Positions 2,062 through 56,468 are shown, counted from the stretch's first letter. The stretch is 64,000 nucleotides of DNA from Thermoanaerobaculia bacterium (GCA_963666565.1 OY762911.1:32001-96000); one strand, 5' to 3'. The notes: a model not told the origin generated them from the sequence alone. Numbers and translations: made by a program.

Positions 2062-3054
2062 CTACTGGTTCTCCGAGCCCTCGATCTCGGCGATCCCTGA
2101 CGCCGTCTCCTCAAGCAGCGCCTGGGCGCCGCGGCGGATCAGGTTGCCGACGCCGGGGGCCTGGAAGAAGCTGAAGCCCTCGCGGTCCCGCCAAGCCAGC
2201 GGACCGCCCAGCTTGAGGCCGGCGCCGAGCACGGCGTCGCGGATGCGGTCGACCATCGCCTCGTACTCCGGCTCGCCCTGGCGCTTGCCGGAGAAGCTGT
2301 AGAGGTCGGTCGAGGCGGCGAACACGACGTCGACGCCGGGCACGGCGGCGATCTCCTCGACCGCCTCGACACCCGCCGGCGACTCGATCATCGCCACGAT
2401 CAGGATGTTCTCGTTGGCGGTCGCCCGGTAGGCGCGGCCCCAGAGCGCGCCGTACTGGCCGCCGCCGAGGCTGCGCCGTCCCTCCGGCGGGAACTTGGCG
2501 AAGCGCACGGCCCACTCCATCTTCTCGGCGGTGCGCACCATCGGCACGACGATGCCGAGCGCTCCGAGGTCCACCGCCTTCTGGATGTCGCCCTCCGTCG
2601 CGTCCGGCACGCGGATGAAGGGAATGGCGGAGGCGTCCCGGCAGGCCCAGAGCATCCGGGCCACGTCCTGGTAGGTCAGCGGGCTGTGCTGCATCTCGAT
2701 CCACGTGAAATCGAAGCCGGCGTTGGCCGCGGCGCAGTAGCTGTCGGGATCGGGCGAGGAGATGCTGACGCCGACGATTCCCTCGCCGCTCATCAGCTTC
2801 TGCTTGGCCGTGTTGTACATCCGCGCGCCTTCGTCCTGACCGGCGGCCGGCGCGGCCGCCACGAGCGCGAGACTCAGACCCAGTGCGGCCGCGGCGGCGG
2901 GGCCGGCGGCTCTCGCGCGTCTCGTCTGGCCGGGCCGGTTCGTTCCGCGTCGCGCGGCCACGCCAACAGGCCGAACACCTCTCACGCGTCCTCCCGCTCC
3001 AGGCCGGTTTCTCGTGCGCCGGGCGGTCCCGGCGGCGCGTGGAATCGCTCTCAT
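2062..3054 (-). CDS. HpcH/HpaI aldolase/citrate lyase family protein with a signal-peptide-like segment
   Basis: GFDFTWIEMQHS, DLGALGIVVPMV, VAMIES, VPGVDVVF; ATG overlaps the upstream stop (ATGA), but the true start is uncertain. Confidence 0.85.
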   Translation of the reverse strand: MRAIPRAAGTARRTRNRPGAGGRVRGVRPVGVAARRGTNRPGQTRRARAAGPAAAAALGLSLALVAAAPAAGQDEGARMYNTAKQKLMSGEGIVGVSISSPDPDSYCAAANAGFDFTWIEMQHSPLTYQDVARMLWACRDASAIPFIRVPDATEGDIQKAVDLGALGIVVPMVRTAEKMEWAVRFAKFPPEGRRSLGGGQYGALWGRAYRATANENILIVAMIESPAGVEAVEEIAAVPGVDVVFAASTDLYSFSGKRQGEPEYEAMVDRIRDAVLGAGLKLGGPLAWRDREGFSFFQAPGVGNLIRRGAQALLEETASGIAEIEGSENQ

Positions 3055-3914
3055 GCGTCCTCCCTGGCTTCCGAAGGATCGGCCGTGCCCGCCGGCGTCT
3101 GCCCGGCCCGGCCGCCGCGCTGGCCGCGCAGCGCCAGGTCGACGCCGACGAGCCGCCGGTTGCCCTCGACCCGGCTGGAACTGCCGCGGATCTCGCGCAG
3201 CACCAGGTAGTCGGCGAAGGCGGCCTCGACGTTCGCGCTGTAGCCCATCGCGTCCTGCGCCTTGTTCACGGCGAGCTTGCCCAGCCGCAGCACCGCCGGA
3301 TCGTTCTCGGCGATCCGTTCGGCGTAGGCCATCGTCTCGCGTTCCAGTTCGTCCTCGGCGTAGACGCGGTTGACCAGGCCCAGTTCCCGCGCCTCGTCCG
3401 CGTCGATGAAGCGGCTCTCGAAGAGCAGCTCCTTCGCCTTGCGGGGATGGATGTCCCAGGGCACGGTGAAGGTCTCGAACAGGCTGGCGAGGAACCGCGC
3501 GCTCGGCGCCGCGAAGATCAGGTCCATCGACGCGGCGATCATCCAGCCGCCGAAGATGCAGTAGCCGTGCACCATCGCGATCGTGGGCTTCGGCAGGTTG
3601 CGCCACTTGACCGTGTTATCCAGGTTGTACCAGCGGAACGCCTCGTACCAGTCCATGCCGACCCACTGGGTCAGCCCCCGTGCCTCGATGTCCGCCTGCT
3701 GCTCCGGCGTGCCCAGGTCGTGCCCGGAGGAGAAGTGCCTGCCGTCGCCCTTCAGCACGACGACCCGGACGTCTTCGTCGGCCATCGCCCGATCGAGCTG
3801 CAGGTCGAGGTCGTCGAGCAGCTTCCAGCTCTGCGCGTTGTGGTACCGGGCCCGGTCCAGCGTCAGCACCGCGACCGGGCCGCGCCGTTCGTATCGAACC
3901 TCTTCTGCTGCCAT
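3051..3914 (-). CDS. Enoyl-CoA hydratase/isomerase
   Basis: FSSGHDL, PKPTIAMVHGYCIFGG, AEEARELG-like DADEARELGLVNRV. Confidence 0.92.
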   Translation of the reverse strand: MAAEEVRYERRGPVAVLTLDRARYHNAQSWKLLDDLDLQLDRAMADEDVRVVVLKGDGRHFSSGHDLGTPEQQADIEARGLTQWVGMDWYEAFRWYNLDNTVKWRNLPKPTIAMVHGYCIFGGWMIAASMDLIFAAPSARFLASLFETFTVPWDIHPRKAKELLFESRFIDADEARELGLVNRVYAEDELERETMAYAERIAENDPAVLRLGKLAVNKAQDAMGYSANVEAAFADYLVLREIRGSSSRVEGNRRLVGVDLALRGQRGGRAGQTPAGTADPSEAREDA

Positions 3915-3949
3915 ATCCTGTCCTCGAACCGTGATCTGGAGGGGAACCG

Positions 3950-5806
3950 ATGAAGCGTAGCGCAGAGTCCGCCGCCGTTCTGCTCGCCGCCTTCGCCCTC
4001 GGCTGCACAGCCGGCAGCGACGCTCCGGCGCCCGGCGAAGGCGCGCAGCCCCCCAACATCGTCCTCGTCGTGACCGACGACCAGGGCTACGGCGACTTCG
4101 GCTTCGCCGGCAACCCGGTCCTCCAGACGCCGCACCTCGACGCCCTGGCCGCCCAGAGCGCCACCGTCGAGCGCTTCTACGTGAGCCCGGTCTGCACTCC
4201 GACCCGCGCCTCTCTCATGACGGGCCGCTACAACTACCGCACCCGCGCCATCGACACCTACATCGGCCGCGCGATGATGGAGCCCGAGGAGGTGACGATC
4301 GCAGAGTTGCTGCGGGACGCCGGCTACGCCACCGGCATCTTCGGCAAGTGGCACCTGGGCGACAACTACCCGCTGCGCGCCATGGACCAGGGCTTCGAGG
4401 AAAGCCTGGTTCACCGGGGCGGCGGGATCGGCCAGCCCTCCGACCCGCCCGGCGGCGAGGGCAAGTACACGGACGCGGTGCTCTTCAGGAACGGAAAGCG
4501 GGTGGAGACGACCGGCTACTGCACGGACGTCTACTTCGACGCCGCGTTCGACTTCATGGAACAGGCGGCCAGCGAGGGGCGGCCGTTCTTCGCCTACGTC
4601 CCGACGAACGCGCCCCACGGTCCGTTCCACGACGTGCCGGAAGAGCTGCTGAAGCGCTATCGGCAAGCGGACCTGCGCGCGGCGCTCCCGGATCCCGGCC
4701 AGGCCAGCGAGCAGGCGCTCGACCGGCTGGCCCGCAGCTACGCGATGATCGGCAACATCGACGACAACGTCGGACGGCTGACCGCAAGGCTCGAGGAGCT
4801 GGGTCTCGCGGACAACACGCTCGTCGTCTTCCTGGTCGACAACGGACCGGACCGCGACCGCTACAACGCGGGGCTCCGCGGCCGCAAGGGAACCGTGTTC
4901 GAGGGCGGCGTCCGGTCGCCCCTGCTGGCGCGCTGGCCGGGGCGGCTGCCGGCGGACGCGCCGCCCGTCGACCGGATCGCGGCCCACATCGACATCGCGC
5001 CGACCCTGCTCGACGCCGCCGGCGTCGAACCGCCCGCCGGGTTGCATCTGGACGGCCGCAGCCTGCTCGGCCTGCTCTCCGGCGAGGACGACGCCGCGGA
5101 CTGGCCGGACCGGGCCATCTACCTGCAGTTCCACCGCGGCAACGAACCGATCCCGCTCCACTCCTTCGCCGCCGTCGGCCAGCGCTACAAGCTGGTCCAC
5201 CCGTCCCCGCGCGGCGAGGGGGACTGGAACGGCGAACTGGCCCTCGAGCTCTACGACCTCGAGACCGACCCGGGCGAGAGCCGCAACCTGATCGCCGGCA
5301 CCCGCGTGGCGCATTCCGCCGGGACCGCGACCGCCGCCGCGAGCCCGCCGGCGGACTCGCCGGACGAGATGTCCGAGGTCGCGGCCGGGATGCGGAACGC
5401 CTACCTGGCGTGGTTCGAGGACGTGAGCTCCACCCGGCCGGACAACTACGCGCCGCCACGGATCGTCGTCGGCACGGACCGCGAACCGGTCACCGTACTC
5501 ACCCGCCAGGACTGGCGGCGGATCACCGACGACCAGGGCTGGCGGCCGACCTCGCGCGGCCGTTGGCTGCTGAGAGCCCTGGACGACGCGACGTTCGACA
5601 TCGAGGTGCGGCTCGTCGCCGGCTCCAGCGGTCCGGTCCTCCTGGAAGTCGACGATCGGAAACTCAGCCAGGACCTGAACCCGGATCGGCAGACCGCGAC
5701 GTTTGAAGAGGTCCCGGTCCCCGCTGGCGACTTCGGGCTCAGCGCCGCGGCCGGCGAAGGCGAGGAACAGCGAGGAGCGCATCAGGTAGTGCTGCGGCAG
5801 CGCTAG
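3950..5806 (+). CDS. Arylsulfatase (Cys-type, probable lipoprotein)
   Basis: PNIVLVVTDDQG, CTPTRASLMTGR, GKWHLG; lipobox-like ALGC. Confidence 0.93.
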   Translation: MKRSAESAAVLLAAFALGCTAGSDAPAPGEGAQPPNIVLVVTDDQGYGDFGFAGNPVLQTPHLDALAAQSATVERFYVSPVCTPTRASLMTGRYNYRTRAIDTYIGRAMMEPEEVTIAELLRDAGYATGIFGKWHLGDNYPLRAMDQGFEESLVHRGGGIGQPSDPPGGEGKYTDAVLFRNGKRVETTGYCTDVYFDAAFDFMEQAASEGRPFFAYVPTNAPHGPFHDVPEELLKRYRQADLRAALPDPGQASEQALDRLARSYAMIGNIDDNVGRLTARLEELGLADNTLVVFLVDNGPDRDRYNAGLRGRKGTVFEGGVRSPLLARWPGRLPADAPPVDRIAAHIDIAPTLLDAAGVEPPAGLHLDGRSLLGLLSGEDDAADWPDRAIYLQFHRGNEPIPLHSFAAVGQRYKLVHPSPRGEGDWNGELALELYDLETDPGESRNLIAGTRVAHSAGTATAAASPPADSPDEMSEVAAGMRNAYLAWFEDVSSTRPDNYAPPRIVVGTDREPVTVLTRQDWRRITDDQGWRPTSRGRWLLRALDDATFDIEVRLVAGSSGPVLLEVDDRKLSQDLNPDRQTATFEEVPVPAGDFGLSAAAGEGEEQRGAHQVVLRQR

Positions 5807-5839
5807 CGCCAGCCGCGGCTCTGCTAACCTCCGCGGCCA

Positions 5840-6217
5840 ATGCTGCGCCGGACCGGTTCGCCACTCGCCATCGTCAACGCTCTCGCGCTGACGCTCGCCA
5901 CCCTGCTCGCTGGAGCCTGGGACTCGAGCGGCCACGGCCACGGCCTGGCCGCGGCGAACGCCGCCTACTGCGCGGTAGATCACGAGGCCGAGGCCAGCGG
6001 CGCCGCCAGCCGGGCCGCGGTCAGTCAGGCCGCGGCGACGCACGATCATTCCTGCGTCGCCTGCAATCTGGGACGTTCCAAGATCGTCGAGGAGCGCAAG
6101 ACCTCGATCGCCGGACTCCTGGACCTCCCCTCGGCCGCGACGGGCTCGGAGGACGGGGGCTGCCCCACCAGCGGCGAGCGCTGGCGGCACACCGCTCGCG
6201 GGCCGCCCCTGGGCTGA
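5840..6217 (+). CDS. DUF2946/CruR-like leader protein, copy 1
   Basis: Hydrophobic N-terminus, HGH, HDHSCVAC, C-terminal ARGPPLG; directly upstream of a TonB receptor; paralog at 12132. Confidence 0.8.
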   Translation: MLRRTGSPLAIVNALALTLATLLAGAWDSSGHGHGLAAANAAYCAVDHEAEASGAASRAAVSQAAATHDHSCVACNLGRSKIVEERKTSIAGLLDLPSAATGSEDGGCPTSGERWRHTARGPPLG

Positions 6218-6449
6218 GTCGATCCGACTCCGCCCGCGCTGCACAGCGCGACGCGTCGGAGTCGTGAAAAGAAAGGTGAGCGCCCCTCGTCGGGGTGACC
6301 GCGACGACCCGTAGCGGTCAGCTCAAGCTGACGCATCCCGGTCGTCCAACGGCGCCGCCGGCGATTCGGTGCGATCCCACCGCCGCGGAATCCGCGGCCT
6401 GCGCTACGGCACTCTTCGACTCGGACTGAACGACCCAGGAACCACAACC
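6214..6449 (+). promoter_or_regulatory. Structured intergenic leader RNA, copy 1
   Basis: Hairpins 6225-6264 and 6317-6332; 6214-6222 is complementary to 6416-6424; same elements in copy 2. Confidence 0.55.
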
Positions 6450-9044
6450 ATGATCGCCAACCGCACAAAGGCCTCGAACTCCTATCCGCGGCGCCGGCAC
6501 CACCGGCGCCAGGCGGCGACGGGCGCCGTTCTCTGCGCCCTCGCCCTTCTTCTCATTCCAGCGACGGCCGGCGCCCAGGAAACCGGCTCCGTCGCCGGGT
6601 CCGTCGAAACGCACGGCGAGAGAATCGTGCTCGCCGTGGCGCGCATCCCCGCGCTCGGCATCAGCGCCGCGGTGTCCACGGACGGCACGTTCCGCTTCGA
6701 CGAAGTGCCGGCCGGCACGTATCTCGTCGTCGTCGACATTCCCGCCTTCGGCACGGCCAGCGAGACGGTCACCGTGGCGGGCGGCGACGAGGTGGATCTC
6801 CAGCTCGAAATGCGTCACGGAACGCACTTCGACGAGGTCGTGGTCACCGCGACCGGCGACCTGCGCCGCGCCTCCGAACTGGCGAATCCCGTCTCCGTGC
6901 TGTCCGGCACGGACCTCCAGTTGCGCCTCGGCGCCACGCTGGGCGAAACGCTGGAGAACGAACCCGGCGTGTACTCGACGGCGTTCACCCCCGGCGCCGG
7001 CCGGCCGATCATCCGCGGCCTGACGGGCGCACGTGTGCGCGTCATGGAAGGCGGACTCGACACCGGCGACGCCTCCACCGTCAGTGCGGACCACGCGGTG
7101 ACCTTCGAACCGGCGCACGCCGAGCAGATCGAGGTTCTGCGCGGCCCCGCCACGCTCCGCTTCGGGTCGGAGGCCATCGGCGGCGCCGTCAACATCGTCG
7201 ACGGCCGGATTCCGACCGAGAAGCCCGTCAGCGCGCTGAAGGGCACGATCGACCTTCGCGGCGGCACCAACGCCGACGAGCGGATGGGCGCCATCCATCT
7301 CGACGGCGGCGGCGGCGAATGGGCTTGGCACCTGGGCGCCGTCAGCCGGGAGACCGATCCGTACGAGATCCCCGGCTACGCCCGCGTCGAGGAGGAGCAC
7401 GACGATCACGACGAGGACCATGACGAAGACCACGACGAGGATCACGACGAGGACGAGGATCACGACGAGGACGAGGACCACGACGACGAGGACCATGACG
7501 AAGATCACGACGAGGATGACCACGACGAACACGAAGAAGAGAACACCTTCGGGATGGTCCCGAACACGGATCTGAAGACGGAGAGCGGCCGGTTCGGCTT
7601 CACCCGCTTCTTCGGCGATCGCGGCTCGATCGGCGTTTCGGTCAGCGGCTTCGACACGAACTACGGGATCCCGCCTGGCGGGCACGCTCATCACGAGCAC
7701 GACGATCACGACGACGAGGACCACGACGAGGACCACGACGACGAGGACCACGACGACGAAGATCACGACGACGAAGACCACGACGACGAAGACCACGACG
7801 ACGAAGACCACGACGACGAAGACCACGACGACGAAGACCACGACGACGAAGATCACGACGACCACGAGGAAGAGGAAGTCCCGATCCGCATCGACATGCA
7901 GCAGCGCCGCGTCGACCTGCGCGCCGAGGCCCTGCCGGCGTCCGGCGCCTTTCAGAAGATCGAGGTCCGGATGGCGGGAACCGACTACGAGCACGTCGAG
8001 CTCGAAGGTCCCAACGTCGGCACGACCTTCTTCAACGAGTACTTCGAGACCCGGCTCGAGATGTTCCAGCGCGAGCGCGGCCGCAGTCGCGGCTCCGTCG
8101 GTCTCCAGTACTCGGACCGCAACCTGGAGGCCTTCGGCGAGGAGGCCTTCGTTCCTCCGACGCAGTCCGAGGGATTGGCGGTCTTCACCTCCCAGGAAGT
8201 CGAGGCCGGCGCCGTTCGCTGGCAGTTCGGGGCCCGCTTCGAGCAACTCGATCAGAACCCGGCGACTACCAGGGATACCTCGCACGACGGGGTCTCCGCC
8301 TCCGCCGGCCTCGTCTGGGACGCGGCCGACGACTGGGTGCTCGGCGTGTCGCTGGCTCGTTCGGTCCGCCTTCCGTCAGCGGAAGAGCTCTTCTCGGACG
8401 GCGTGCATGTCGCCACGCAGAGCTACGAGGTCGGCGACCCGAACCTCGACAACGAGGTCGGCACCGGCATCGACGTGTCGCTGCGCAAGACGGAGGGACC
8501 GCTGACCGGCGAACTGACGATCTTCCGCCAGAGCTTCAGCGACTTCATCTACCAGGCCTTCACCGGCGAAGAGGAGGACGGTTTCTCGGTGCTCCAGCAC
8601 AGCCAGGCCGACGCCACCACCGAAGGCGCCGAACTCCGGCTCCGGCTCGAGCTGCTCGACCGCAACGACCATCACCTGCACCTCCAGGCGATCGCCGACA
8701 CCGTCGACGCCGAGCTGGACGCGGGTGGCAACCTGCCGCGGATTCCGCCAATGAGCTTCGGCGCCGGCCTCCACTACCACGGCCACCATTGGCGCGCCGC
8801 GGTGGAGGGTCGCTGGTTCGACGACCAGAACGACGTCGCGGAACTGGAGACCCCGACCGAGGGCTACACTCTGGTGAACGCCCACGTCGGGCGGCGCTTC
8901 ATCGTCGGCAACCAGATCCTCGACGTGCTCCTGCGGGGCCGCAACCTGACGGACGAGGAGGCGCGCGTGCATACCTCGTTCCTGAAGAACTTCGCGGCCC
9001 TGCCCGGCAGGGACATCACCCTGTCGGCCCGGTTCTGGTTCTGA
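6450..9044 (+). CDS. TonB-dependent receptor, ZnuD-like, with His/Asp-rich loops
   Basis: Signal peptide, carboxypeptidase-regulatory-like N-domain, EVVVTAT, TLGETL...PG, RPIIRG, IEVLRGPATLRFG, LPRIPP, C-terminal ARFWF. Confidence 0.93.
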   Translation: MIANRTKASNSYPRRRHHRRQAATGAVLCALALLLIPATAGAQETGSVAGSVETHGERIVLAVARIPALGISAAVSTDGTFRFDEVPAGTYLVVVDIPAFGTASETVTVAGGDEVDLQLEMRHGTHFDEVVVTATGDLRRASELANPVSVLSGTDLQLRLGATLGETLENEPGVYSTAFTPGAGRPIIRGLTGARVRVMEGGLDTGDASTVSADHAVTFEPAHAEQIEVLRGPATLRFGSEAIGGAVNIVDGRIPTEKPVSALKGTIDLRGGTNADERMGAIHLDGGGGEWAWHLGAVSRETDPYEIPGYARVEEEHDDHDEDHDEDHDEDHDEDEDHDEDEDHDDEDHDEDHDEDDHDEHEEENTFGMVPNTDLKTESGRFGFTRFFGDRGSIGVSVSGFDTNYGIPPGGHAHHEHDDHDDEDHDEDHDDEDHDDEDHDDEDHDDEDHDDEDHDDEDHDDEDHDDEDHDDHEEEEVPIRIDMQQRRVDLRAEALPASGAFQKIEVRMAGTDYEHVELEGPNVGTTFFNEYFETRLEMFQRERGRSRGSVGLQYSDRNLEAFGEEAFVPPTQSEGLAVFTSQEVEAGAVRWQFGARFEQLDQNPATTRDTSHDGVSASAGLVWDAADDWVLGVSLARSVRLPSAEELFSDGVHVATQSYEVGDPNLDNEVGTGIDVSLRKTEGPLTGELTIFRQSFSDFIYQAFTGEEEDGFSVLQHSQADATTEGAELRLRLELLDRNDHHLHLQAIADTVDAELDAGGNLPRIPPMSFGAGLHYHGHHWRAAVEGRWFDDQNDVAELETPTEGYTLVNAHVGRRFIVGNQILDVLLRGRNLTDEEARVHTSFLKNFAALPGRDITLSARFWF
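7398..7535 (+). repeat. In-frame His/Asp/Glu tandem repeat, loop 1
   Basis: Degenerate CACGACGAGGAC-type units encoding HDED. Confidence 0.85.
7698..7868 (+). repeat. In-frame 15-bp tandem repeat encoding (HDDED)n, loop 2
   Basis: GACCACGACGACGAA/G repeated about 10 times. Confidence 0.9.
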
Positions 9045-9066
9045 GTCGGGCAAGGAACTCAACGCC

Positions 9067-10323
9067 TTGCTCCCCTGCCGGGAAAAGACCACGCAGCGCT
9101 CCCTGACGTCCCGTTTCCGCGAGGCGTCTCTTCCCGCGGCGCTCTTCCTGTCTGTCTGCCTGATTGCCTGCGGGTCCGGCGTGCCCGTCGATCCGGGATC
9201 CGTCGAAGGCGCGACGCCCGCGGCGTCCTACGCGGAGACCTTCAGCGTCGTCGAACGGGACGGCTACCGCGTTGTCGACATCGAAGCGTCCGTCGTCGCC
9301 TGGGGCGGATCGGCGGGCGGACCGCCGCAACGCGTCCGCCTGGTGCTGGTCCCAAAGGGCGGAACGCCGCCAGCGCTGACGGGAGAACTGGCAGGCGCCT
9401 CGTTGATCCGAACGCCCGTCGAGCGGATCGCCGTCAACGATCAACCGCATGAGGCCATGCTGCGCGCACTCGGAGTGGAGAGCCGGATCGTCGCGGTCGG
9501 CGGGCGCGACAGCTACGACGACGGCCTGCGCCGCAAGGCCCGGTCACGTGAGATCCAGCAGATCGGCTACGCGTGGCACATGCCGCCTACGCTCGATGCG
9601 CTGGTGGCGTCGCGGCCCGAAGTGCTGATCGCGCGCATGGCCGACCTCACGCACACGCAGCACATGGAGCGCGTCGAGTCGCTCGGCATCGCGGTCGTGC
9701 CGACCTTCATCGATGCGGAGCCGCACTACATGGGGCGTGTCGAGTGGATCCGTCTGATGGGTCTGCTGACCGGTACGGAGGCGGAAGCCGATGAGTTCGT
9801 CCAGATGGTCGCGCAAGAGGTCGACCGCCTGAAGGCCATTGCGAACGGGCATCCCCGACGATCGGTTCTCTGGGCCTGGTACCGGAGCGCGGGCAATCGC
9901 TGGGCCGTCACGCAGCGCAACGCCGATGCGGCCCTCATTCGCGACGCCAACGCGGAGCTTGTCATGGGCGCCGAGGACGATCCGGAGCTCGACGCGTTCT
10001 CCGATCTCTCCACGGAACGGCTGCTGCGGGACGGTACGGATGCCGACTGCTGGATGATCCGCGACCCGCTCTCCGGAGTGTTCGACGATCAGGCCGTGCT
10101 TTCTCGCTTCAAGGCCTATCGGGACGATTGCGTGTTCTGGGAGTCCGGCAAGCGCCATCCCACCGCCGATTCGTGGGAGCTGTGGGAGATGGGCACCATC
10201 CGGCCGGACTGGCAACTGGCCGACATCATGAAGATGATGCATCCGGCACTGCGTGACGGCGAGTGGCGTTACCTCGCGCCGGAGACGTGGGAAGCGGACC
10301 ATGCCCTCGCGGGTCGGCACTAG
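9067..10323 (+). CDS. ABC transporter substrate-binding lipoprotein (Fe-siderophore/cobalamin class)
   Basis: LIAC lipobox, IRTPVERIAV, EPHYMGRVEWI, RPDWQLADI; start uncertain. Confidence 0.85.
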   Translation: MLPCREKTTQRSLTSRFREASLPAALFLSVCLIACGSGVPVDPGSVEGATPAASYAETFSVVERDGYRVVDIEASVVAWGGSAGGPPQRVRLVLVPKGGTPPALTGELAGASLIRTPVERIAVNDQPHEAMLRALGVESRIVAVGGRDSYDDGLRRKARSREIQQIGYAWHMPPTLDALVASRPEVLIARMADLTHTQHMERVESLGIAVVPTFIDAEPHYMGRVEWIRLMGLLTGTEAEADEFVQMVAQEVDRLKAIANGHPRRSVLWAWYRSAGNRWAVTQRNADAALIRDANAELVMGAEDDPELDAFSDLSTERLLRDGTDADCWMIRDPLSGVFDDQAVLSRFKAYRDDCVFWESGKRHPTADSWELWEMGTIRPDWQLADIMKMMHPALRDGEWRYLAPETWEADHALAGRH

Positions 10324-11332
10324 CGTCGTCGTTCTGGTCGGCGCGCTCGCCGCGCTCTCGCTGCTCACCCTCACCTATGGGCAGATCGCGCTGCCACTGG
10401 CCGACACGGTCGGCGCGCTCACCGGAACGCTGTCGACCGACCTTGCGCGCCAGATCGTCCTCGACATTCGCCTTCCGCGAGTCGCCGCCGCGATCATCGC
10501 CGGCGCCGCGCTCGGCATGGCGGGAGTGCTGATGCAGGCCCTCTTCCGGAACCCGGTGGCCGACGGCTGGTCTCTCGGCCTGCTCGCGGGCGGCCAGCTC
10601 GGGGTCGCACTCACGGTGACCGCGGCGGCTTTTGCGGGTCCCGCGGCCGTGTCCTTCCTGACCTTCTTCGAGGGCCCCAGCATCACGCTGGCGGCCGCCG
10701 CCGGCGTAGCGGTTGCGGCATTCGCCATGCTCGCGCTCGGCCGCCGCGTCGGCGCCATCACGCTGCTCGTCATCGGCCTGATGCTCGGCTTCACCTCCCA
10801 GGGCCTCACCAGCGTTCTTCTTCACTTCGCCGCCCGCGCCGGCGGCCGGATCTATGGCGGATGGCAGGATGCGAGCTTCGCCGGCGTCGCCCCTTCGGCG
10901 CTGGCGTGGCTCTCGCTGCCGATCCTCGTCGGCGCCTGCGTCGCCGTCGCGACGGCCAAGCCGCTCAGTTCGCTGCTTCTCGGCGAGGCCTACGCGCGCA
11001 GCCTCGGGGTCAAGGTGACGTCGCTCCGACATGCCGTCCTCGCGGCTACCGTACTCCTGGTGGCGCCGGTCGTGGCCTTCTGCGGTCCGGTCAGCTTCGT
11101 CGGCCTCATCGCACCGCACTTCGCGCGCGCACTGGCCGGGACGGCGCGAATCCTCCCGCTCCTGCCGCTTGCCGCGCTTGGCGGTGCGCTGCTTGCCCTT
11201 GCCGGCGACGCCATCGTTCATGCGCCGTGGGAACAGCACTTCCTGCACCTGAACGCGATCCTCGCCATCGTCGGCGCCCCGGTCGTGATTCTCATCCTGA
11301 TCCTCTCACCGGCCGTGAGACAGTGGCGCTGA
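10301..11332 (+). CDS. FecCD/BtuC-family ABC permease
   Basis: IRLPR, MQALFRNPVAD, LLLGEAYARSLGV, GPVSFVGLIAPH. Confidence 0.92.
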   Translation: MPSRVGTSVVVLVGALAALSLLTLTYGQIALPLADTVGALTGTLSTDLARQIVLDIRLPRVAAAIIAGAALGMAGVLMQALFRNPVADGWSLGLLAGGQLGVALTVTAAAFAGPAAVSFLTFFEGPSITLAAAAGVAVAAFAMLALGRRVGAITLLVIGLMLGFTSQGLTSVLLHFAARAGGRIYGGWQDASFAGVAPSALAWLSLPILVGACVAVATAKPLSSLLLGEAYARSLGVKVTSLRHAVLAATVLLVAPVVAFCGPVSFVGLIAPHFARALAGTARILPLLPLAALGGALLALAGDAIVHAPWEQHFLHLNAILAIVGAPVVILILILSPAVRQWR

Positions 11333-12117
11333 TGCTGGATCTGCGATCCCTCGCCGTGGGCTACCGCAACACACGGAACATCGTTCTTTCCGGCATCGAC
11401 CTGGCGGCCGCGCCTGGCGACTTCATCTGCATCCTCGGCCGCAACGGGTCCGGGAAGTCGACGCTCATGCGCACGATCGCGGCGCTGCAAACCTCGCTCG
11501 ACGGCGCCGTGCTGCTCGACGGCGAGGACGTCGCCTCCATGCGTCCGGCGACCCGCGCGCGCCGGATCGCGGTCGTGCTGACGGAGCGGCAGTTCAATCC
11601 GGGCCTGCGCGTCGAGGACGTCGTCGCACTCGCCCGGCAGCCCTTCACGGGTTGGCAGGGTGGACTGGCGGACGACGACCGGGCGGCGGTCGCCGACGCC
11701 GTCGCGACAGCCGGCGTCGGGCCGTTCCTGCGCCGTTTCTTCAGCGATCTCAGCGACGGCGAGCGACAGCGCGTGATGATCGCGCGGGCGCTCGCACAAA
11801 CCCCGCGCCTCATGGTCCTCGACGAGATCACGGCCTTCCTCGACCTTCCAAGCCGGGTCGAGATCACGGCCCTCCTGCGCTCCCAGGCGAAGCAGAAAGG
11901 GCAGGTCATCCTGCTCTCAAGCCACGACCTCGACCTTTCGCTTCAGCTCGCCGACAGCGTCTGGCTGCTCGACGGCACCGGCGGCTTTTCGGTCGGCACG
12001 CCGGCGGCCCTGAGCGAGAGTGGCGGGCTCGGCCGTGCCTTCGACACGGAGGCGATCCGGTTCTCGCCCTCCCACGGGCGGTTCGAGATCCGGATGTCCC
12101 CATCCGCGAATCCATGA
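11332..12117 (+). CDS. ABC transporter ATP-binding protein (FepC/BtuD-like)
   Basis: GRNGSGKST, LSDGERQRVMIARALAQ, LDE, SHD; TGATG coupling to the permease. Confidence 0.93.
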   Translation: MLDLRSLAVGYRNTRNIVLSGIDLAAAPGDFICILGRNGSGKSTLMRTIAALQTSLDGAVLLDGEDVASMRPATRARRIAVVLTERQFNPGLRVEDVVALARQPFTGWQGGLADDDRAAVADAVATAGVGPFLRRFFSDLSDGERQRVMIARALAQTPRLMVLDEITAFLDLPSRVEITALLRSQAKQKGQVILLSSHDLDLSLQLADSVWLLDGTGGFSVGTPAALSESGGLGRAFDTEAIRFSPSHGRFEIRMSPSANP

Positions 12118-12131
12118 TAAAAGGCCCCTCC

Positions 12132-12506
12132 GTGCCGCACCGATCCCACTCGCCGCTCGTCATCGTCAACGCACTCGCGCTGACGGTCGCGACGCTCGTC
12201 GCCGCCTGGGACGCGGGCTGCCACGACCATGACGAGCCGGCGGCAAGGGACGCCCGGTACGCGATCAACCAGGAAGCCGCGGCCTCCGGGGCCGCGAACC
12301 CCGCCAGCCTCGCCAGCGCCGAGGCGCCGCACGAACACTCCTGCGTCGCGTGCAGGATCGGATGCTCGAAGTCGGCCGAGATCGCCAGGAACTCCGCTTC
12401 CAGGCCGCTCGACCTCGCTTCGGCCGCGGCAAGGCCCGAGAACGACGGCAGCGCCCGACGCGGCGCGCCCAGGCTGCAGGCTGCTCGCGGTCCGCCGCTG
12501 GGCTGA
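12132..12506 (+). CDS. DUF2946/CruR-like leader protein, copy 2
   Basis: SPLVIVNALALT, HDH, HEHSCVAC, ARGPPLG-stop; GTG start chosen by alignment to copy 1 (ATG 12114 is an alternative). Confidence 0.8.
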   Translation: MPHRSHSPLVIVNALALTVATLVAAWDAGCHDHDEPAARDARYAINQEAAASGAANPASLASAEAPHEHSCVACRIGCSKSAEIARNSASRPLDLASAAARPENDGSARRGAPRLQAARGPPLG

Positions 12507-12801
12507 GTCGAACAGCGGCGCCGACCCGCGCGGCAACGCGCGGCGTCGGAGCCTCCAGAAAGCAAACCAGGCGTCGCCCGCCCCACTTCGGGGCGATGGC
12601 GACGACGCCATCGCGGTCAGCCGTTGCTGACCCGAACGGAGTCGCAGCATCGCGCGACCGACGAGTTCGGCACGCCGCAAGCGCTGCGAATCCTCAGCCA
12701 GCGCCACACAAGCTCCCTTGACCCGGAGGGCCTTCGATCCGAAGGGCCTTCGACTCGGAGGGACCCTCGACTCGGACCGAACCATGCAGGAACTCAAGAC
12801 A
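12503..12801 (+). promoter_or_regulatory. Structured intergenic leader RNA, copy 2
   Basis: Hairpins 12521-12549 (GCAA loop) and 12615-12632; 12503-12512 is complementary to 12749-12758 and 12767-12775. Confidence 0.55.
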
Positions 12802-15348
12802 ATGCTCGCTACCTTCACCAAGCTCTCGAACTCCAATCCACGGCGCCGGCCCCGCTGGCGCCAAGCAGCGACGGGCGCCGCTCTCTGCGCCCTTGCCCTC
12901 ATCCTCCCCCCGCCGCCGGCCAACGGTCAGGCGACGGGATCCGTCGCCGGAACGGTCACGAGCCCCGGCGAAGCCGGCATCTCGCTCGCCGTCGCCCGTC
13001 TCTCCGAGTTGTCCCTCAGCGCCCCGGTGGCCGCGGACGGGACGTTTCGGTTCGACGCCGTGCCTCCCGGCACGTATCTCCTGGTCGTCGACATTCCGTC
13101 GGTCGGCCTGACCAGCCAGCCGGTCACCGTCTCGGCCGGCCAGCAGACGACCCTCGAACTGGAACACGATCACTTCACCCACTTCGACGAGATCGTCGTC
13201 ACCGGCTCCGGCGATCTCCGGAACGAGTCCGAGCTGCCGAACGCGATCTCCGTGCTGGGCGGCGCCGACCTGCAACTGCGCCTGGGGGCGACGCTGGGCG
13301 AGACCCTGGCGGGGGAACCGGGCCTGTCCTCCACCGCGTTCGTTCCGGGAGCGGCGCGGCCGGTCATCCGCGGCCTTTCGAGCGCGCGCGTTCGTGTGCT
13401 CAACGGCGGCATGGGAACCGGCGACGTTTCCGTGGAGAGCGCCGACCACGCCGTGACGACCGACCCGATCCTGGCGGAGCAGGTCGAAGTGCTGAGAGGT
13501 CCGGCCACGCTCCGCTACGGCTCGGGCGCCATCGGCGGCGCCGTGAACGTCGTCGACGGTCGCATTCCAGCGAACCGGGCGGCAAGGACCGTTGGCGGCA
13601 GGATCGACCTGGTCGGCGGTTCGGTGGCCGACGAGGAGACGGGCGCGGTCCAACTCAACGGAGGCGGCGGCGAATGGGCCTGGCACATCGGGGCCGTCAG
13701 CCGGAAGACCGATCCGTACGAGATCCCCGGCTACGCCCGCCTCGAGGAGGAGCACGACGACCACGACGACCACGGCCACGAGGACGAGGACCACGAAAAC
13801 GACGACCACGACGACCACGAAGAGGAGAACAGCTTCGGCATCGTCCCGAACACGGACCTGAGGACCGAAAGCGGCCGGGTCGGCGTCACGCGCTTCTTCG
13901 GCAACCGCGGTTTCCTGGGCGTCTCGTTCAGCGGTTTCAGCACCGACTACGGCATTCCGCCAGGCGCACACAGCCACGCAGGGCACGATCACGGCGGAGA
14001 CGGCCACGACGAGGACGGGGATCACCACGACGAGGACGGGGATCACCACGACGAGGACGAGGACCATCACGACGAGGATGACGACCACCACGGCGACGAC
14101 GAGGACCACCACGACGAGGATGACGACCACCACGACGAGGATGACGACCACCACGACGAAGAGGAAGAGCACCATGACGACGGCGACATTCGCCTCGACA
14201 TGAAGCAGCAGCGCTTCGACCTCAGAGCCAGCGTCAACCTGCTCGCACCCGCCTTCGAGAGGCTCGAACTGCAAACGTCCGGAACGGACTACGAGCACGT
14301 CGAGTTCGAAAGCGGCCACACCGGCGTCCTCTACACGAACGACCTCTTCGAGACCCGGGTCGAGATGTTCCAACGCGAGCGGGGCGCCAGCCGGGGCAGC
14401 GTCGGCTTGCAGTACGTGGACCGCGATCTCGCCGCGGTCGGCGCCGAGGCCTTCATCCCCCCGACCCGCTCGAACACCTGGGCGGCTTTCACCTCCCAGG
14501 AGATTCAGAGGGGATCGGTTCGCTGGCAGTTCGGCGCCCGCTTCGAACAGGCCGAGCACGACCCGGCAAACGGACCGGCCTGGTCCGGCGACGGCGTTTC
14601 CGCCTCGACCGGCATCGTCTGGACGGCCGGAGACGCGTGGAACCTCGGCGTGTCGGCCTCGCGCTCAGTTCGCCTTCCCAGTCCGGGCGAGCTGTTCTCC
14701 CACGGTGCTCACATACCCACCCGGACCTTCGACATCGGCGATCCCGACCTGGACGCGGAAGTCGGCGCCGGCCTGGACATCACGCTTCGCAGGGAGGAGG
14801 GCGCCGTCCAGGGCAAGTTGACCCTGTTCCGGCAGGACTTCCAGGACTTCATCTACCACGCGTTCACCGGCACGGAGCTCTCTGGCTTCCCGGTCACCGT
14901 CTACAGTCAGGCCGACGCGACGATGACCGGCGCGGAGCTCCACGCGCGGATAGAGCTCGCGGAGTGGAACGGGCACGACCTGCACATGGAGATCGTGGGC
15001 GACACGGTCGACGCGGAACTGGACGAAGGCGGCAATCTGCCGAGAATTCCGCCGCTGAGCCTGGGCGCCGGCGTCCACTACCACGGCCACGACTGGCGGG
15101 CAGCGGTCGAGTGGCGGTGGGTCGACGACCAGAACGATGTCGCCGAGCAGGAGACGCCGACCGACGGCTACGCCATGCTGAACGCGCACATCGGCCGGCG
15201 CTTTACGGCGAACGACCAGATCTTCGACCTGCTCCTGCGGGGGCGGAACCTGACCGACGAGGAAGCCCGGGTGCACACGTCCCTGCTCAAGACGTTCGCG
15301 CCCCTGCCCGGGAGGGACATCACGCTGTCGGCGCGGTTCTGGTTCTGA
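12802..15348 (+). CDS. TonB-dependent receptor, ZnuD-like, paralog 2
   Basis: Colinear with 6450-9044; VEVLRGPATLRYG, His/Asp loops, ARFWF end; start chosen by alignment. Confidence 0.93.
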   Translation: MLATFTKLSNSNPRRRPRWRQAATGAALCALALILPPPPANGQATGSVAGTVTSPGEAGISLAVARLSELSLSAPVAADGTFRFDAVPPGTYLLVVDIPSVGLTSQPVTVSAGQQTTLELEHDHFTHFDEIVVTGSGDLRNESELPNAISVLGGADLQLRLGATLGETLAGEPGLSSTAFVPGAARPVIRGLSSARVRVLNGGMGTGDVSVESADHAVTTDPILAEQVEVLRGPATLRYGSGAIGGAVNVVDGRIPANRAARTVGGRIDLVGGSVADEETGAVQLNGGGGEWAWHIGAVSRKTDPYEIPGYARLEEEHDDHDDHGHEDEDHENDDHDDHEEENSFGIVPNTDLRTESGRVGVTRFFGNRGFLGVSFSGFSTDYGIPPGAHSHAGHDHGGDGHDEDGDHHDEDGDHHDEDEDHHDEDDDHHGDDEDHHDEDDDHHDEDDDHHDEEEEHHDDGDIRLDMKQQRFDLRASVNLLAPAFERLELQTSGTDYEHVEFESGHTGVLYTNDLFETRVEMFQRERGASRGSVGLQYVDRDLAAVGAEAFIPPTRSNTWAAFTSQEIQRGSVRWQFGARFEQAEHDPANGPAWSGDGVSASTGIVWTAGDAWNLGVSASRSVRLPSPGELFSHGAHIPTRTFDIGDPDLDAEVGAGLDITLRREEGAVQGKLTLFRQDFQDFIYHAFTGTELSGFPVTVYSQADATMTGAELHARIELAEWNGHDLHMEIVGDTVDAELDEGGNLPRIPPLSLGAGVHYHGHDWRAAVEWRWVDDQNDVAEQETPTDGYAMLNAHIGRRFTANDQIFDLLLRGRNLTDEEARVHTSLLKTFAPLPGRDITLSARFWF
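13984..14180 (+). repeat. In-frame His/Asp repeat (HHDEDDD-type, about 21-bp units)
   Basis: CACCACGACGAGGATGACGAC-like units. Confidence 0.85.
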
Positions 15349-15404
15349 CGGGTATACTCCGCGGCTCGACAGCGGTCGGCACCGCGGCCACGGCCCGAAT
15401 CCGC

Positions 15405-15481
15405 GTCCCCATCGTCTAGCCAGGTCAGGACTCCAGCCTTTCAAGCTGGCAACACGGGTTCGAATCCCGTTGGGGACGCCA
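15405..15481 (+). tRNA. tRNA-Glu (anticodon TTC)
   Basis: Acceptor GTCCCCA/TGGGGAC, anticodon arm CCAGC-CTTTCAA-GCTGG, T arm ACGGG-TTCGAAT-CCCGT, encoded CCA; TATACT at 15353-15358 upstream. Confidence 0.96.
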
Positions 15482-15492
15482 TCGCGCCGGAT

Positions 15493-15961
15493 GGCGCGAT
15501 GGCGGCCACAACGGGTTCGGTCGACGCTGCTCGCCTACGGCTCGCCGCTCTGGAACGTATCCCGTTGGGGACGAAGCCCTGCCGGTCGGCGCGATGGCGG
15601 CCACAACGGGTTCGGTCGACGCTGCTCGCCTACGGCTCGCCGCTCTGGAACGTATCCCGTTGGGGACGAAGCCCTGCCGGTCGGCGCGATGGCGGCCACA
15701 ACGGGTTCGGTCGACGCTGCTCGCCTGCGGCTCGCCGCTCTGGAACGAATCCCGTTCAACGCGAAACGTCAACACGCCGGATCGGCGCGATGGCGGCCAC
15801 AACGGGTTCGGTCGACGCTGCTCGCCTCCGGCTCGCCGCTCTGGAACGAATCCCGAGCGAGACGTCAACCCGCCGACTGGCGCGATGGCGGCCACAACGG
15901 GTTCGGTCGACGCTGCTCGCCTCCGGCTCGCCGCTCTGGAACGTATCCCGTTGGGGACGCC
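15493..15961 (+). repeat. Five tandem tRNA-3'-end-derived repeats (period 95-101 bp)
   Basis: Core GGCGCGATGGCGGCCACAACGGGTTCGGTCGACGCTGCTCGCCTnCGGCTCGCCGCTCTGGAACGwATCCCG starts at 15493, 15588, 15683, 15784 and 15879. Confidence 0.93.
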
Positions 15962-15988
15962 GGGCGGGCGGTTGGTACCCTGAACGGG

Positions 15989-17962
15989 ATGAAGGTGATC
16001 GCGAACTCGGGGGTTCGGCGTCGGGCTGGGCGGCGAGCCCTCGTTGCGTGGGCCGGCGTGCTGGTGCTGGGGTCGACGCTGGCGGCGCAGGAGGGCGAGT
16101 GGCCGTACTTCGGCGGTGACCGCACCTTCAAGCGCTACTCGCCGCTCGACCGGATCGACGCCTCGAACGTCGGCGATCTGCGCATCGTGTGGCGGCGGCC
16201 GGGTCTGGAACCGGAGCTCAGGGAGGAGTTCCCCGAGTTGCGGCCGGGCAACAACCTGCGATCGACGCCGATCATGGTCGAAGGTCGCCTCTTCCTGACC
16301 AACCTCGTCGGCCTGCTGCGCGCCGTCGACCCGGCGAGCGGCGAGACCCTGTGGGCTCAGGCGCCGTTCGAGCCGACGATCGAGGAGGCACGCGGCTTGA
16401 GCCCACGAGGCGTCGACCTCTGGACCGGCGGCGAGCGGCAACGACTGTTCCTCGCACGCGGCAACTACCTGTACTCGGTCGACGCCTCGAGCGGCGAGCT
16501 CGACGGCGACTTCGGCGACCAGGGACGCGTCAGCCTCCGCCTCCCGGGACCGCTTGCCGGCGATTTCACCTGGACCGCCGGGCCGATCGTCGTGGGCGAC
16601 GTCGTCGTGACGGCCGGATACACCGGAGGCGCCGGCGACGGCGGCAGCAAGAGAGAAGCGACGCCGGAGGACGTGCGCGGCTACGACGTCCGCACGGGCC
16701 GCCGGCTGTGGACGTTCCACGTCGTGCCGCGGCCGGGCGAGCCGGGCAACGAGACCTGGGGCGACGGCTCGTGGGAGTACTCGGGCGACCTCGGGTCGTG
16801 GTGCTGCCTGTCGGCCGACGAGGAACTCGGCCACGTCTACGTCCAGCTCTCGGCCCCGACCGCGGCGTACTACGGCGGCCACCGGCCCGGCGACAACCTG
16901 TATTCCAACTCGCTCGTGGCGCTGGACGCCGGGACGGGCGAGCGAGTCTGGCACTTTCAGATGGTGCGCCACGACGTCTGGGAGTGGGACACGGTCGGTC
17001 CGGCGACCCTCGGCGAGATCACGGTCGACGGGAGGCGGATCGACGCCGTCATGCAGCCCTCGAAGACCGGCTTCCTCTACGTCTTCGATCGCCGTACCGG
17101 GGAGCCGGTGTGGCCGATCGAGGAGAGGGCCGTGCCCGGCTCACGGGTCCCCGGGGAGCAACTGTCGCCGACCCAGCCGTTCCCGACGAAGCCGCCGCCC
17201 TTCGACCGGCAGGGATTCGTGGAGGACGACCTGATCGACTTCACGCCGGAGCTCCGGGCACGCGCCCTGGAACTCGTCAAGCCCTTCCGTCTCGGGCCGA
17301 TGTTCACGCCGCCCGGCCTGATGGACGACGAGCAGGGGAAGATCGGCACCCTGACGAACCCGGGATGGTGGGGAACGGGGAACTGGCATACCGGCGCCTT
17401 CGATCCCGAGACCGGCGTGTACTACGCCGTGTCCCACACCTGGCCGAGCGTGTACTCCCTGACACAGCCGGAAGGCAGCGACGCGACACTCGGCTACGTG
17501 GTCGGCTACGACGGTCCCGACGTACCGACCCTCGACGGACTCCCGATCGTGAAGCCACCCTACGGGCGAATCACCGCAATCGACATGCATCGCGGCGAGC
17601 ACGTGTGGATGGCGGCCAACGGCGACGGGCCTCGAGACCATCCCCTGCTCGAAGGCCTCGACGCGCCGCCCCTGGGAGTCGCCGGGCGGCCGGCGCCGCT
17701 GGTGACGAAGACGCTGCTGTTCATCGGTGAAGGCAGCGACGCCATCCCCGGCATCGAGGGGGAAGAAGGCCGCTACTGGGGCAGGAAGTTCCGCGCCTAC
17801 GACAAGGCCACGGGCGAGGTCGTGTGGGAAACGGAGCTGCCGTCCGGCACCACCGGCGCGCCGATTACCTACATGCACGAGGGTCGCCAGTTCATCGTCG
17901 TCGCGATCGGCGGCAACGAGTCCCCGGCGGAATTCGTGGCGTTTGGCCTGCCGCTGGACTGA
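15989..17962 (+). CDS. PQQ-dependent dehydrogenase (glucose/quinate-like beta-propeller), secreted
   Basis: Signal peptide, RYSPLDRID, RGYDVRTG, WHFQMVRHDVWEWD, PTQPFPTKPPPF, KPPYGRITAID. Confidence 0.9.
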   Translation: MKVIANSGVRRRAGRRALVAWAGVLVLGSTLAAQEGEWPYFGGDRTFKRYSPLDRIDASNVGDLRIVWRRPGLEPELREEFPELRPGNNLRSTPIMVEGRLFLTNLVGLLRAVDPASGETLWAQAPFEPTIEEARGLSPRGVDLWTGGERQRLFLARGNYLYSVDASSGELDGDFGDQGRVSLRLPGPLAGDFTWTAGPIVVGDVVVTAGYTGGAGDGGSKREATPEDVRGYDVRTGRRLWTFHVVPRPGEPGNETWGDGSWEYSGDLGSWCCLSADEELGHVYVQLSAPTAAYYGGHRPGDNLYSNSLVALDAGTGERVWHFQMVRHDVWEWDTVGPATLGEITVDGRRIDAVMQPSKTGFLYVFDRRTGEPVWPIEERAVPGSRVPGEQLSPTQPFPTKPPPFDRQGFVEDDLIDFTPELRARALELVKPFRLGPMFTPPGLMDDEQGKIGTLTNPGWWGTGNWHTGAFDPETGVYYAVSHTWPSVYSLTQPEGSDATLGYVVGYDGPDVPTLDGLPIVKPPYGRITAIDMHRGEHVWMAANGDGPRDHPLLEGLDAPPLGVAGRPAPLVTKTLLFIGEGSDAIPGIEGEEGRYWGRKFRAYDKATGEVVWETELPSGTTGAPITYMHEGRQFIVVAIGGNESPAEFVAFGLPLD

Positions 17963-18003
17963 GCCCGCCCGCTCCGCCGACCACCTCACCCAGGAGTCCA
18001 CCC

Positions 18004-37487: not shown

Positions 37488-37497
37488 GGATAGTGCC

Positions 37498-42810: not shown

Positions 42811-42847
42811 GCCAGCACCGTCAACAGCCGGAATCAGGAGAGGACTG

Positions 42848-56271: not shown

Positions 56272-56292
56272 GAAGCGTCTCCCTCTCGAAGC

Positions 56293-56390
56293 GGAGCCGG
56301 CCTGACGGCCGGCGCCCTCTCTTCCCCGGGTCAGAAGACCCGGGGTCACCTGCCTTCGGCGGCAGCGGGTCAGAAGACCCGCGCACCCAG
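56293..56390. repeat. REP-like family A composite (one full and one partial unit)
   Basis: GGAGCCGGCCTGACGGCCGGCGC, CGGGTCAGAAGACCCG (56327-56342), GCGGGTCAGAAGACCCGCGCACCCAG (56365-56390). Confidence 0.75.
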
Positions 56391-56468
56391 TCGAAATCCC
56401 GTCGATGGTATACACCACGACTGCGCCACAGCCACAGCCGACCGATCCCAACCTGGGAGCCACGAGCC

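Follow-up and report, generated by a model that had tools for sequence, protein, structure and literature searches.

One of the known systems closest to the locus discussed here is that of CruR (Bp2923), a small DUF2946 protein from Bordetella pertussis, by which copper controls a TonB-dependent transporter through Rho (PMC9426467). CruR contains a CXXC motif and a RAPP motif, separated by 45 residues, a gap which across the family varies by one or two residues, and both motifs as well as their spacing are important for copper control of the downstream transporter. Two comparable open reading frames (ORFs), each followed by a gene for a TonB-dependent receptor, are present in a 64,000-nucleotide stretch of DNA from a Thermoanaerobaculia bacterium (GCA_963666565.1, OY762911.1:32001-96000); the whole stretch is called the window below. 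Each of these ORFs is probably a regulatory leader, a nascent-peptide metal switch of the CruR type, which likely acts through Rho and for which zinc is the leading candidate signal. The probability of this reading is put at roughly two in three.

The arrest motifs of such leaders have been surveyed by Fujiwara et al. (PMC12992588). RGPP is a robust arrest core, as strong as RAPP and not relieved by EF-P, and the in vitro arrest of CruR occurs when its Pro codons occupy the P and A sites. Upstream of TonB receptors in Gram-negative phyla, small secretory ORFs with a C-terminal RGPP or RAPP are enriched, nearly all of the TonB-related ones being predicted secretory, and proteomes are depleted of RGPP apart from positions near the C-terminus of a small secretory leader. 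The excerpts of this census list TonB-dependent receptors among the enriched downstream genes, and they name neither what the leaders sense, nor the type of receptor, nor the ligand sets, nor the Acidobacteriota leaders described here. ApdA and ApdP, like the ORFs of the window, are small, secretory-looking proteins in which an R-[AG]-P-P core lies near the C-terminus, but they monitor Sec/YidC activity and have no metal module, while a candidate metal module is present here.

Nascent-peptide control by a metal has been shown experimentally only for copper, in CruR and in CutF from Rhodobacter capsulatus, also a DUF2946 protein. CutF resembles the ORFs of the window in being an export-like small leader whose Cys motif lies ~45 residues from a C-terminal Pro motif (PMC9973294), and in controlling the next gene in cis, as is proposed here. 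Unlike them, CutF has a CxxxC and a PPP-type motif and induces a detoxifying oxidase at high copper (PMC9973294; bioRxiv 10.1101/2025.02.05.636593).

Leader ORF 1 (5840-6217, plus strand) encodes 125 amino acids, and leader ORF 2 (12114-12506, plus strand) encodes 130 from the ATG at 12114 or 124 from the GTG at 12132. The two proteins are identical at 63 of 122 aligned residues (52%, E 6e-29). The first-pass annotation, made from the sequence alone, had described two paralogous ORFs of ~125 residues in front of TonB receptors, and this observation is confirmed together with the motifs it listed. The N-terminal segments SPLAIVNALALT and SPLVIVNALALT, HGH and HDH, HDHSCVAC and HEHSCVAC, and ARGPPLG followed by the stop codon align between copies 1 and 2, and in copy 1 CxxC is found at residues 72-75 and RGPP at residues 120-123.

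ORF 1 contains an export-like hydrophobic N-terminus, a candidate His/Cys/Asp module, a poorly conserved linker, and ARGPP with two further residues before TGA. Codons 8-30 (5861-5929, plus strand) encode a hydrophobic helix, with AGA and then W27, whose resemblance to a signal peptide was judged by eye from the hydrophobic stretch. Codons 32-75 (5933-6064, plus strand) encode the candidate metal-binding module HxH ... CxxDH ... HDHSCxAC, made of H32, H34, C44, D47, H48, H68-D-H70, C72 and C75. The predicted arrest site is encoded by CGC GGG CCG CCC (6197-6208, plus strand). ORF 2 has a similar layout with RGPP encoded at 12486-12497 (plus strand); it has gained C31, has A/N/Q in place of C44/D47/H48, and has HEH in place of HDH. 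The ATG at 12114 shares bases with the stop codon of the preceding ABC ATPase gene (ATGA), and of the three further loci having the ABC genes, L012 and L029 show a counterpart of this longer start; the GTG at 12132 is the start common to most orthologues.

The window has a G+C content of ~69% and long spurious ORFs are abundant in it, so open frames alone carry little weight. ORF 1 and ORF 2 are nevertheless real genes, far beyond chance, as indicated by their homologues, by their codon-position G+C (0.71/0.63/0.87 for ORF 1 and 0.69/0.63/0.87 for ORF 2, with the third position well above the second, typical of real genes in this genome) and by motifs that are invariant among intact copies. 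Of the 217 candidates in a homologue search, 59 proteins reach E <= 0.01, and almost all of these have 123-129 residues. The few that are named are called "hypothetical protein" and come from Holophagales or Acidobacteria metagenome-assembled genomes (MAGs), and none of the 59 carries a precomputed Pfam domain. In the alignment of 61 sequences the near-invariant columns are H32, G33, H34, C44, D47, H48, H68-D-H70, S71, C72, A74, C75, G112, E113 and A119-R-G-P-P123, and the last two residues are variable.

A genome scan yielded 38 related loci from 95 pattern matches, all in Acidobacteriota MAGs (Candidatus Multivorans, Thermoanaerobaculia, Holophagales and one Vicinamibacteraceae). When a family HMM was run on six-frame ORFs of these loci and the window, 59 distinct ORFs were obtained, of which 55 are counted as intact after removal of two frameshifted pieces in L032, a broken copy in L038 and the copy in L035, which has ALGPP. 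Each of the 55 intact copies carries RGPP, and none RAPP, with a tail of exactly two residues ahead of the stop codon; the gap from CxxC to RGPP is 44 residues in 48 copies and 43 in the other seven. The Arg codon is CGC in all 55, Gly is encoded by GGG (13), GGT (17), GGA (13) and GGC (12), the first Pro by CCG (49), CCA (4) and CCC (2), and the second by CCC (41), CCG (10), CCT (3) and CCA (1). The constancy of the residues and the use of all four Gly codons indicate selection on the peptide and not on the RNA. The first position after RGPP is encoded by 17 different codons, and the stop codon is TGA in 53 copies. Conservation that ends right after RGPP fits the pattern expected if the ribosome halts there.

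Three copies depart from this pattern. In L035 (10001-10378) ARGPP is replaced by ALGPP, in L032 (13267-13642) a class-2 copy (see below) is split by a frameshift, and in L038 (1243-1899), a short contig, the copy runs on in a broken frame. These variants could be natural controls or assembly errors.

When 1.84 billion representatives were searched with a profile, only 36 proteins reached E <= 0.001, and the 23 remote representatives that were aligned (22-35% identity to the first among them) invariably keep one His of the first HxH, C-x-x-x-H, H-x-H-x-C-x-x-C and R-G-P-P, with a two-residue tail in 18. Retention of the ligands and of RGPP marks a distinct subfamily reaching beyond close relatives.

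Relation to DUF2946, one of the checks proposed with the first-pass annotation, was borne out in part. DUF2946 (PF11162) is the top Pfam match of ORF 1 (E 0.0042, 18.3 bits, profile positions 3-117 of 117) and the best Pfam match of 46 of the 61 family members (E <= 0.1, best E 1.1e-4), all below the gathering score; the second ORF is not matched. Among 30 further remote representatives, eight match at E <= 0.01, the strongest with 22.8 bits. The top two clusters of an ESM Atlas feature search bear the name DUF2946 (score 0.96; 182 and 181 of 256 features) and 22 of 30 matches lie within the DUF2946 family set. C72 and C75 are present in all 55 intact copies and all 23 remote representatives, the gap of 43-44 residues lies within one or two residues of that in CruR, an export-like N-terminus is suggested by the conserved hydrophobic stretch and by the helix predicted for residues 8-30, and the ORF is followed by a long leader. 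RAPP is replaced by RGPP, with two residues before the stop codon instead of three.

The leader family thus appears, from its sequences, to be a divergent RGPP branch of the known CruR and RAPP/RGPP kind. It shares with CruR the small ORF, the export-like N-terminus, the invariant CxxC, an Arg-x-Pro-Pro two to three residues before the stop codon, a motif gap of 43-45 residues, a long leader after the ORF and a downstream TonB-dependent transporter. It differs from CruR in having RGPP, a Pfam score below the cut-off, additional conserved HxH, CxxDH and HxH motifs, a ZnuD-like instead of a CrtA-type receptor, and two copies in series, neither being clearly first in its gene string. It also differs in host, as the DUF2946 list in the excerpts of Roy et al. 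(PMC9426467) is mostly from Proteobacteria with none from Acidobacteriota; that survey used the Pfam profile, with which a sub-threshold clade such as the present one would have gone unnoticed. The background on CruR and on RGPP as an arrest motif, cited by the first-pass annotation, agrees with the published accounts.

RGPP/RAPP leaders before TonB receptors are already a published class, and Table S1 of Roy et al. and Fig. 4E of Fujiwara et al. may already list the present ORFs. What is new is the coupling to zinc-type receptors, the His-rich set of ligands and the arrangement with two checkpoints. No literature linking RGPP/RAPP leaders to ZnuD-type receptors was found among the papers listed in a search that left the supplements and figures of both census papers out of its scope, none was found joining zinc, arrest peptide and TonB-dependent, and the two papers naming both ZnuD and DUF2946 gave no link in cis.

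By analogy with CruR, the ribosome would stall on the leader two codons short of its stop, when the P and A sites hold the two Pro codons of RGPP, as predicted from the CruR toeprint (PMC12992588). At this point residues 32-75 (HxH ... CxxDH ... HxHxCxxC) would be outside the exit tunnel, as the module ends 44 residues before RGPP. In the presence of metal the module would bind it, fold and pull on the nascent chain, and the stall would be released; in its absence the stalled ribosome would persist and the downstream receptor would be expressed. Release would shut expression off, most likely by Rho-dependent termination in the conserved leader of 215-295 nt, and the second leader would act as an independent checkpoint within the same gene string. 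Such a sign is the one needed for an uptake system and is also that found for CruR. Folding of a small zinc-binding domain upon metal binding has reportedly been used experimentally to release SecM arrest.

The nature of the receptors bears on the metal. Receptor 1 (6450-9044, plus strand; 864 residues) and receptor 2 (12802-15348, plus strand; 848 residues) each combine a CarboxypepD_reg and a Plug domain with a TonB barrel. Receptor 2 starts at the ATG at 12802 and not at the first ATG at 12784, as shown by alignment of its leader with those of orthologues. The best solved structure for the receptors is Neisseria ZnuD (PDB code 4RDR, E 1.1e-47; next match 6.5e-9), and the best NCBIfam model is also ZnuD (NF038289), with E 1.8e-104 and 2.5e-108. 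The high-affinity zinc ligands of ZnuD are D99, H100, E340 and H499, and a His/Asp/Glu cluster is present in its loop 3 (PMC4557270). After correction for an offset of 14 residues in the PDB chain numbering, these ligands align with D214, H215, E517 and H653 of receptor 1, and receptor 2 carries the same four ligands. Alignment of 43 complete receptors shows that all four persist in every receptor that follows a class-1 leader (25 of 25) or a class-2 leader (15 of 15). The first-pass proposal that the receptors are of ZnuD type therefore holds as regards best match and ligands (40 of 40), but the scores of 350.8 and 363.5 bits do not reach the NCBIfam cut-off of 950 bits. As judged from these alignments, "ZnuD-like" is well founded as a resemblance but not as formal family membership.

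The His/Asp loops noted in the first-pass annotation are present as two His/Asp/Glu-rich segments in each receptor, at residues 311-367 and 410-479 of receptor 1 (7380-7550 and 7677-7886) and residues 312-345 and 399-464 of receptor 2 (13735-13836 and 13996-14193). All type-1 and type-2 receptors carry two such segments, of 23-80 residues; the second aligns with loop 3 of ZnuD, and both are much longer than in ZnuD. They are encoded by tandem repeats of 9-36 nt (7395-7540, 7699-7862, 13739-13820 and 14004-14180), and the variation of loop length between orthologues suggests frequent expansion and contraction. In contrast to ZnuD of Neisseria meningitidis, with which they share best structural and NCBIfam match, the four ligands and the loop-3 cluster, the receptors of the window add the N-terminal CarboxypepD_reg domain and the two low-complexity segments. 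ZnuD is under Zur control and not that of a leader peptide, whereas the receptors here are preceded by leader ORFs. A scan of 28 other ORFs of the window brought up no regulator of the Zur/Fur type.

Zinc is considered the most likely signal because the receptors carry the ZnuD zinc site; the His/Asp-rich residues added to the sensor, and the likeness between loci with a third class of leader and a Zur-regulated cluster (see below), also favor it. It is possible, if rather doubtful, that the same arrest switch senses copper, as CruR does, or another metal. The only characterized relatives sense copper via CxxC, sets of Cys and His bind Cu(I) well, and receptor 2 gives a weak TonB-copper match (4e-16). 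The receptors are, however, far nearer to ZnuD than to OprC (E 1e-104 versus 4e-16; OprC in the PDB 6.4e-4) with the ZnuD ligands kept, and in this family CxxC is supplemented by one Asp and five conserved His.

The RNA between ORF and receptor was compared in 35 of 41 tabulated leaders, six being left out as redundant or too divergent (both from L009, copy 1 of L015, two copies from L034, and L037). Leader 1 (6218-6449, plus strand; 232 nt) contains conserved hairpins, a C-rich, G-poor stretch at ~6371-6487 and an AGGAA ribosome-binding site. Leader 2 (12507-12801, plus strand; 295 nt) is homologous to it, with a 16-nt repeat expansion at 12716-12776 and a C-rich region from ~12749. The distance from stop to start is 211-278 nt in most other copies, and 62-357 nt, by first-ATG calls, in some class-3 or divergent ones. 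Class 1 and class 2 both conserve a hairpin directly after the stop codon, a GTCAGC/GCTGAC hairpin and a CCGA/TCGG hairpin, a nearly invariant CTTCGACTCGGACTGAAC...CCAGGAAC box precedes the receptor ATG, and a TCGACTC box is conserved ~35 nt upstream of the ribosome-binding site. In the GTCAGC/GCTGAC hairpin one pair is GC in 15, AU in eight and GU in eight sequences. RNAalifold on the 35 leaders gave 17 pairs, four with compensatory change, and a covariation term of -0.43 kcal/mol; both window leaders fold better than shuffled sequences (z -3.5 and -3.3).

Leader 2 carries 3.8 repeats of the 16-nt unit CCTTCGACCCGGAGGG at 12716-12776, an expansion of the conserved CTTCGACTCGGA box that is single in other leaders, with a similar insertion in leader 2 of L019. 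In leader 1 of L012, repeated CTAG has been inserted into the GTCAGC/GCTGAC hairpin loop (alignment A2, columns 151-167).

The last ~80 nt of each leader and the first receptor codons are C-rich and G-poor. The ratio of C to G in 78-nt segments peaks at 2.38 and 2.31, compared with 1.04 for the median of the window and 1.92 for its 99th percentile. Such a composition is the signature sought in Rho sites. In CruR the C>G bubble and the rut site begin inside the leader ORF (PMC9426467), unlike the stretch seen here in the distal leader, which implies that Rho, if used, is wired differently from CruR. No intrinsic terminator was found in 5500-6600, and the longest T run in either leader is 2. An Rfam search of 3000-18000 at E <= 1 gave only tRNA-Glu and, at the same spot, a far-sub-threshold match to a plastid motif, and a riboswitch was rejected on this ground. 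A sigma-70 scan gave no promoter and none in shuffled sequences either, being uninformative at this G+C content.

A CutF-type translational switch would instead have the leader exported during translation, with metal binding in the periplasm at SecYEG prolonging the stall, so that the ribosome melts the RNA and the receptor is translated. The hydrophobic, export-like N-terminus is compatible with it, as is the predicted secretory nature of nearly all TonB-related RGPP/RAPP ORFs (PMC12992588), and a spacing of ~45 residues was argued to bring the metal motif into the SecY vestibule (PMC9973294). The leaders have a high degree of structure, and the region of the stop codon can pair with the TCGACTC box near the ribosome-binding site. 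In CutF a stem-loop over the ribosome-binding site opens; no such sequestration is predicted in these leaders. Over the 35 leaders, the mean unpaired probability of the ribosome-binding site is 0.62, and 0.64 when the footprint of a stalled ribosome is masked, so a hidden site was rejected, which argues against unmasking of the CutF or SecM type. A helix between the tail codons and the ribosome-binding site keeps its central pairs in only 14 of the 35 leaders and was discounted as evidence. Induction by metal is moreover the wrong sign for an uptake receptor, and this mechanism is considered unlikely.

Less probable still is that the ORFs encode stable secreted metal-binding proteins, periplasmic zinc chaperones or receptor partners, in which RGPP has no regulatory role. 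The signal-like N-terminus, the eight to ten conserved His, Cys and Asp residues and the conserved co-occurrence with metal receptors are in line with such proteins, and a role of this kind would be compatible with that of a leader. A stable fold is poorly supported by the AF2 model of ORF 1, calculated with the 61-sequence alignment (mean pLDDT 56.4, pTM 0.21; residues 92-118 below 50), in which only the helix of residues 8-30 is confident (block pLDDT 89 and 76). Further, the most conserved element is RGPP at a fixed distance of two codons from the stop, followed by freely varying residues, RGPP is depleted from proteomes outside the C-termini of small secretory leaders (PMC12992588), CruR and CutF went undetected as stable proteins (PMC9426467 and PMC9973294), and a long conserved leader follows the ORF. 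Finally, chance open frames beside a non-coding leader RNA, for which the abundance of spurious ORFs at 69% G+C and the conserved leader might speak, are extremely improbable given third-position G+C of 0.87, 59 homologous proteins of constant length, synonymous codons at invariant residues and the Rfam result.

Several observations weigh against the proposed leader-peptide switch, its zinc specificity or its use of Rho. Compensatory change is clear in only one hairpin, GTCAGC/GCTGAC, and a long-range helix between the stop region and TCGACTC, which can pair in 27-35 of the 35 leaders, shows none and was discounted. The ratio of C to G is only ~0.9-1.4 in the 3' half of the ORFs, the strong C-rich stretch being in the distal leader and receptor start. 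The Cys and His ligands of the sensor also suit Cu(I). The ABC transporter encoded between receptor 1 and leader ORF 2 is of the FecCD/Peripla_BP_2 type, usual for chelates and not free zinc, which hints that the imported species may be a chelate. Receptors after class-3 leaders have none of the four ZnuD ligands (three of three complete receptors), and in L024 a class-2-like copy precedes an aminotransferase gene and not a receptor. The score of 18.3 bits for ORF 1 is below the DUF2946 gathering cut-off of 23.7, and ORF 2 gave no match at E <= 1. DUF2946 genes are reported in the first operon position (PMC9426467); here ORF 1 lies 33 nt past a same-strand sulfatase gene and ORF 2 lies inside a gene string.

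The leaders fall into three paralogue classes, with 31 intact copies in class 1, 18 in class 2 and six in class 3. At position 31 class 1 has G (31 of 31) and class 2 has C (17 of 18). C44 is present in all 31 class-1 copies, versus C in six, S in 11 and Y in one of class 2; D47 is found in 30 of 31 and 13 of 18, H48 in 30 of 31 and nine of 18, respectively, and position 69 is D in 30 of 31 class-1 copies and E in all 18 of class 2. Class 3 is like class 1 at positions 44, 47, 48 and 69, with N and not G at position 31 in five of six. It is hypothesized, in line with the first-pass suggestion of differently tuned duplicates, that these systematic differences at candidate ligands reflect different affinity or selectivity. 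Class-3 leaders, 54-61% identical to ORF 1, occur at seven loci (L020, L027, L028, L030, L033, L035 and L036), several of them in MAGs that also carry class-1 and class-2 loci. The duplication of the leader is, by these comparisons, old and conserved across the clade, which goes beyond the first-pass annotation, as does the third class, located elsewhere in related genomes; the regulatory interpretation offered there is supported in each part open to checking, with stalling, metal and output all predicted.

The survey of neighborhoods proposed with that annotation showed the leader-receptor order to recur in most of the 38 loci, usually as sulfatase, leader 1, receptor 1, leader 2, receptor 2 and sometimes a third receptor. 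In the window, receptor 1 is followed by genes for a periplasmic binding protein (Peripla_BP_2; 9067-10323, plus strand, start codon uncertain), a FecCD-type ABC permease (10253-11332, plus strand), both identified by Pfam, and the ABC ATPase (11332-12117, plus strand), whose stop codon overlaps the ATG of leader ORF 2. A transporter of this type between receptor 1 and leader 2 is found only in the window, L011, L012 and L029. The annotated class-3 locus L028 has a different TonB receptor, followed by ABC_tran, a large ABC-2-like permease and ABC_tran. This arrangement of receptor and ABC-2 genes recalls the znuK-znuGHI cluster of Caulobacter, which is Zur-regulated (PMC4176598), and it counts against copper as the signal. 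The three complete class-3 receptors checked have no His-rich loops. In L024 (2497-4476) a 240-nt leader separates the class-2-like copy from the gene of a class I/II aminotransferase with an Arg-rich N-terminus.

The family is a clean test case for a second metal, having a known zinc site in the receptor and an enlarged His/Cys set that is invariant in distant relatives. The three paralogue classes with different ligands, the one Arg-to-Leu variant and the one frameshifted copy would serve as natural internal controls. If the proposed switch is real, zinc uptake would be regulated after transcription start in a phylum with few genetic tools, and release of arrest by metal-driven co-translational folding could be tested directly in a reconstituted system. 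A bolder proposal, offered tentatively and at less than even odds, is that these leaders are the first zinc-responsive nascent-peptide sensors, in which an eight-ligand His/Cys module would fold on zinc outside the tunnel, open the RGPP arrest and switch off ZnuD-type receptors without a Zur-like repressor, the two differently liganded serial copies giving a two-threshold response.

Other features of the window were recorded as well. A 95-nt unit repeated in 5.2 tandem copies (15464-15959, 88% matches) begins inside the 3' end of the tRNA-Glu gene (15405-15481) and overlaps the long N-terminal extension of a PQQ-dependent dehydrogenase frame (15470-17962), whose Pfam domain starts at residue 211. 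An integrase-core (rve) gene at 34345-35634 lies beside 36001-38000, the only clearly lower-G+C stretch (0.608), and the two may represent a mobile element. The minus strand carries a PIN-domain gene at 1118-1528. Encoded at 42746-43951, 54736-56505 and 56469-57662 are two M19 membrane dipeptidases and an amidohydrolase, families which usually use zinc or other divalent metals.

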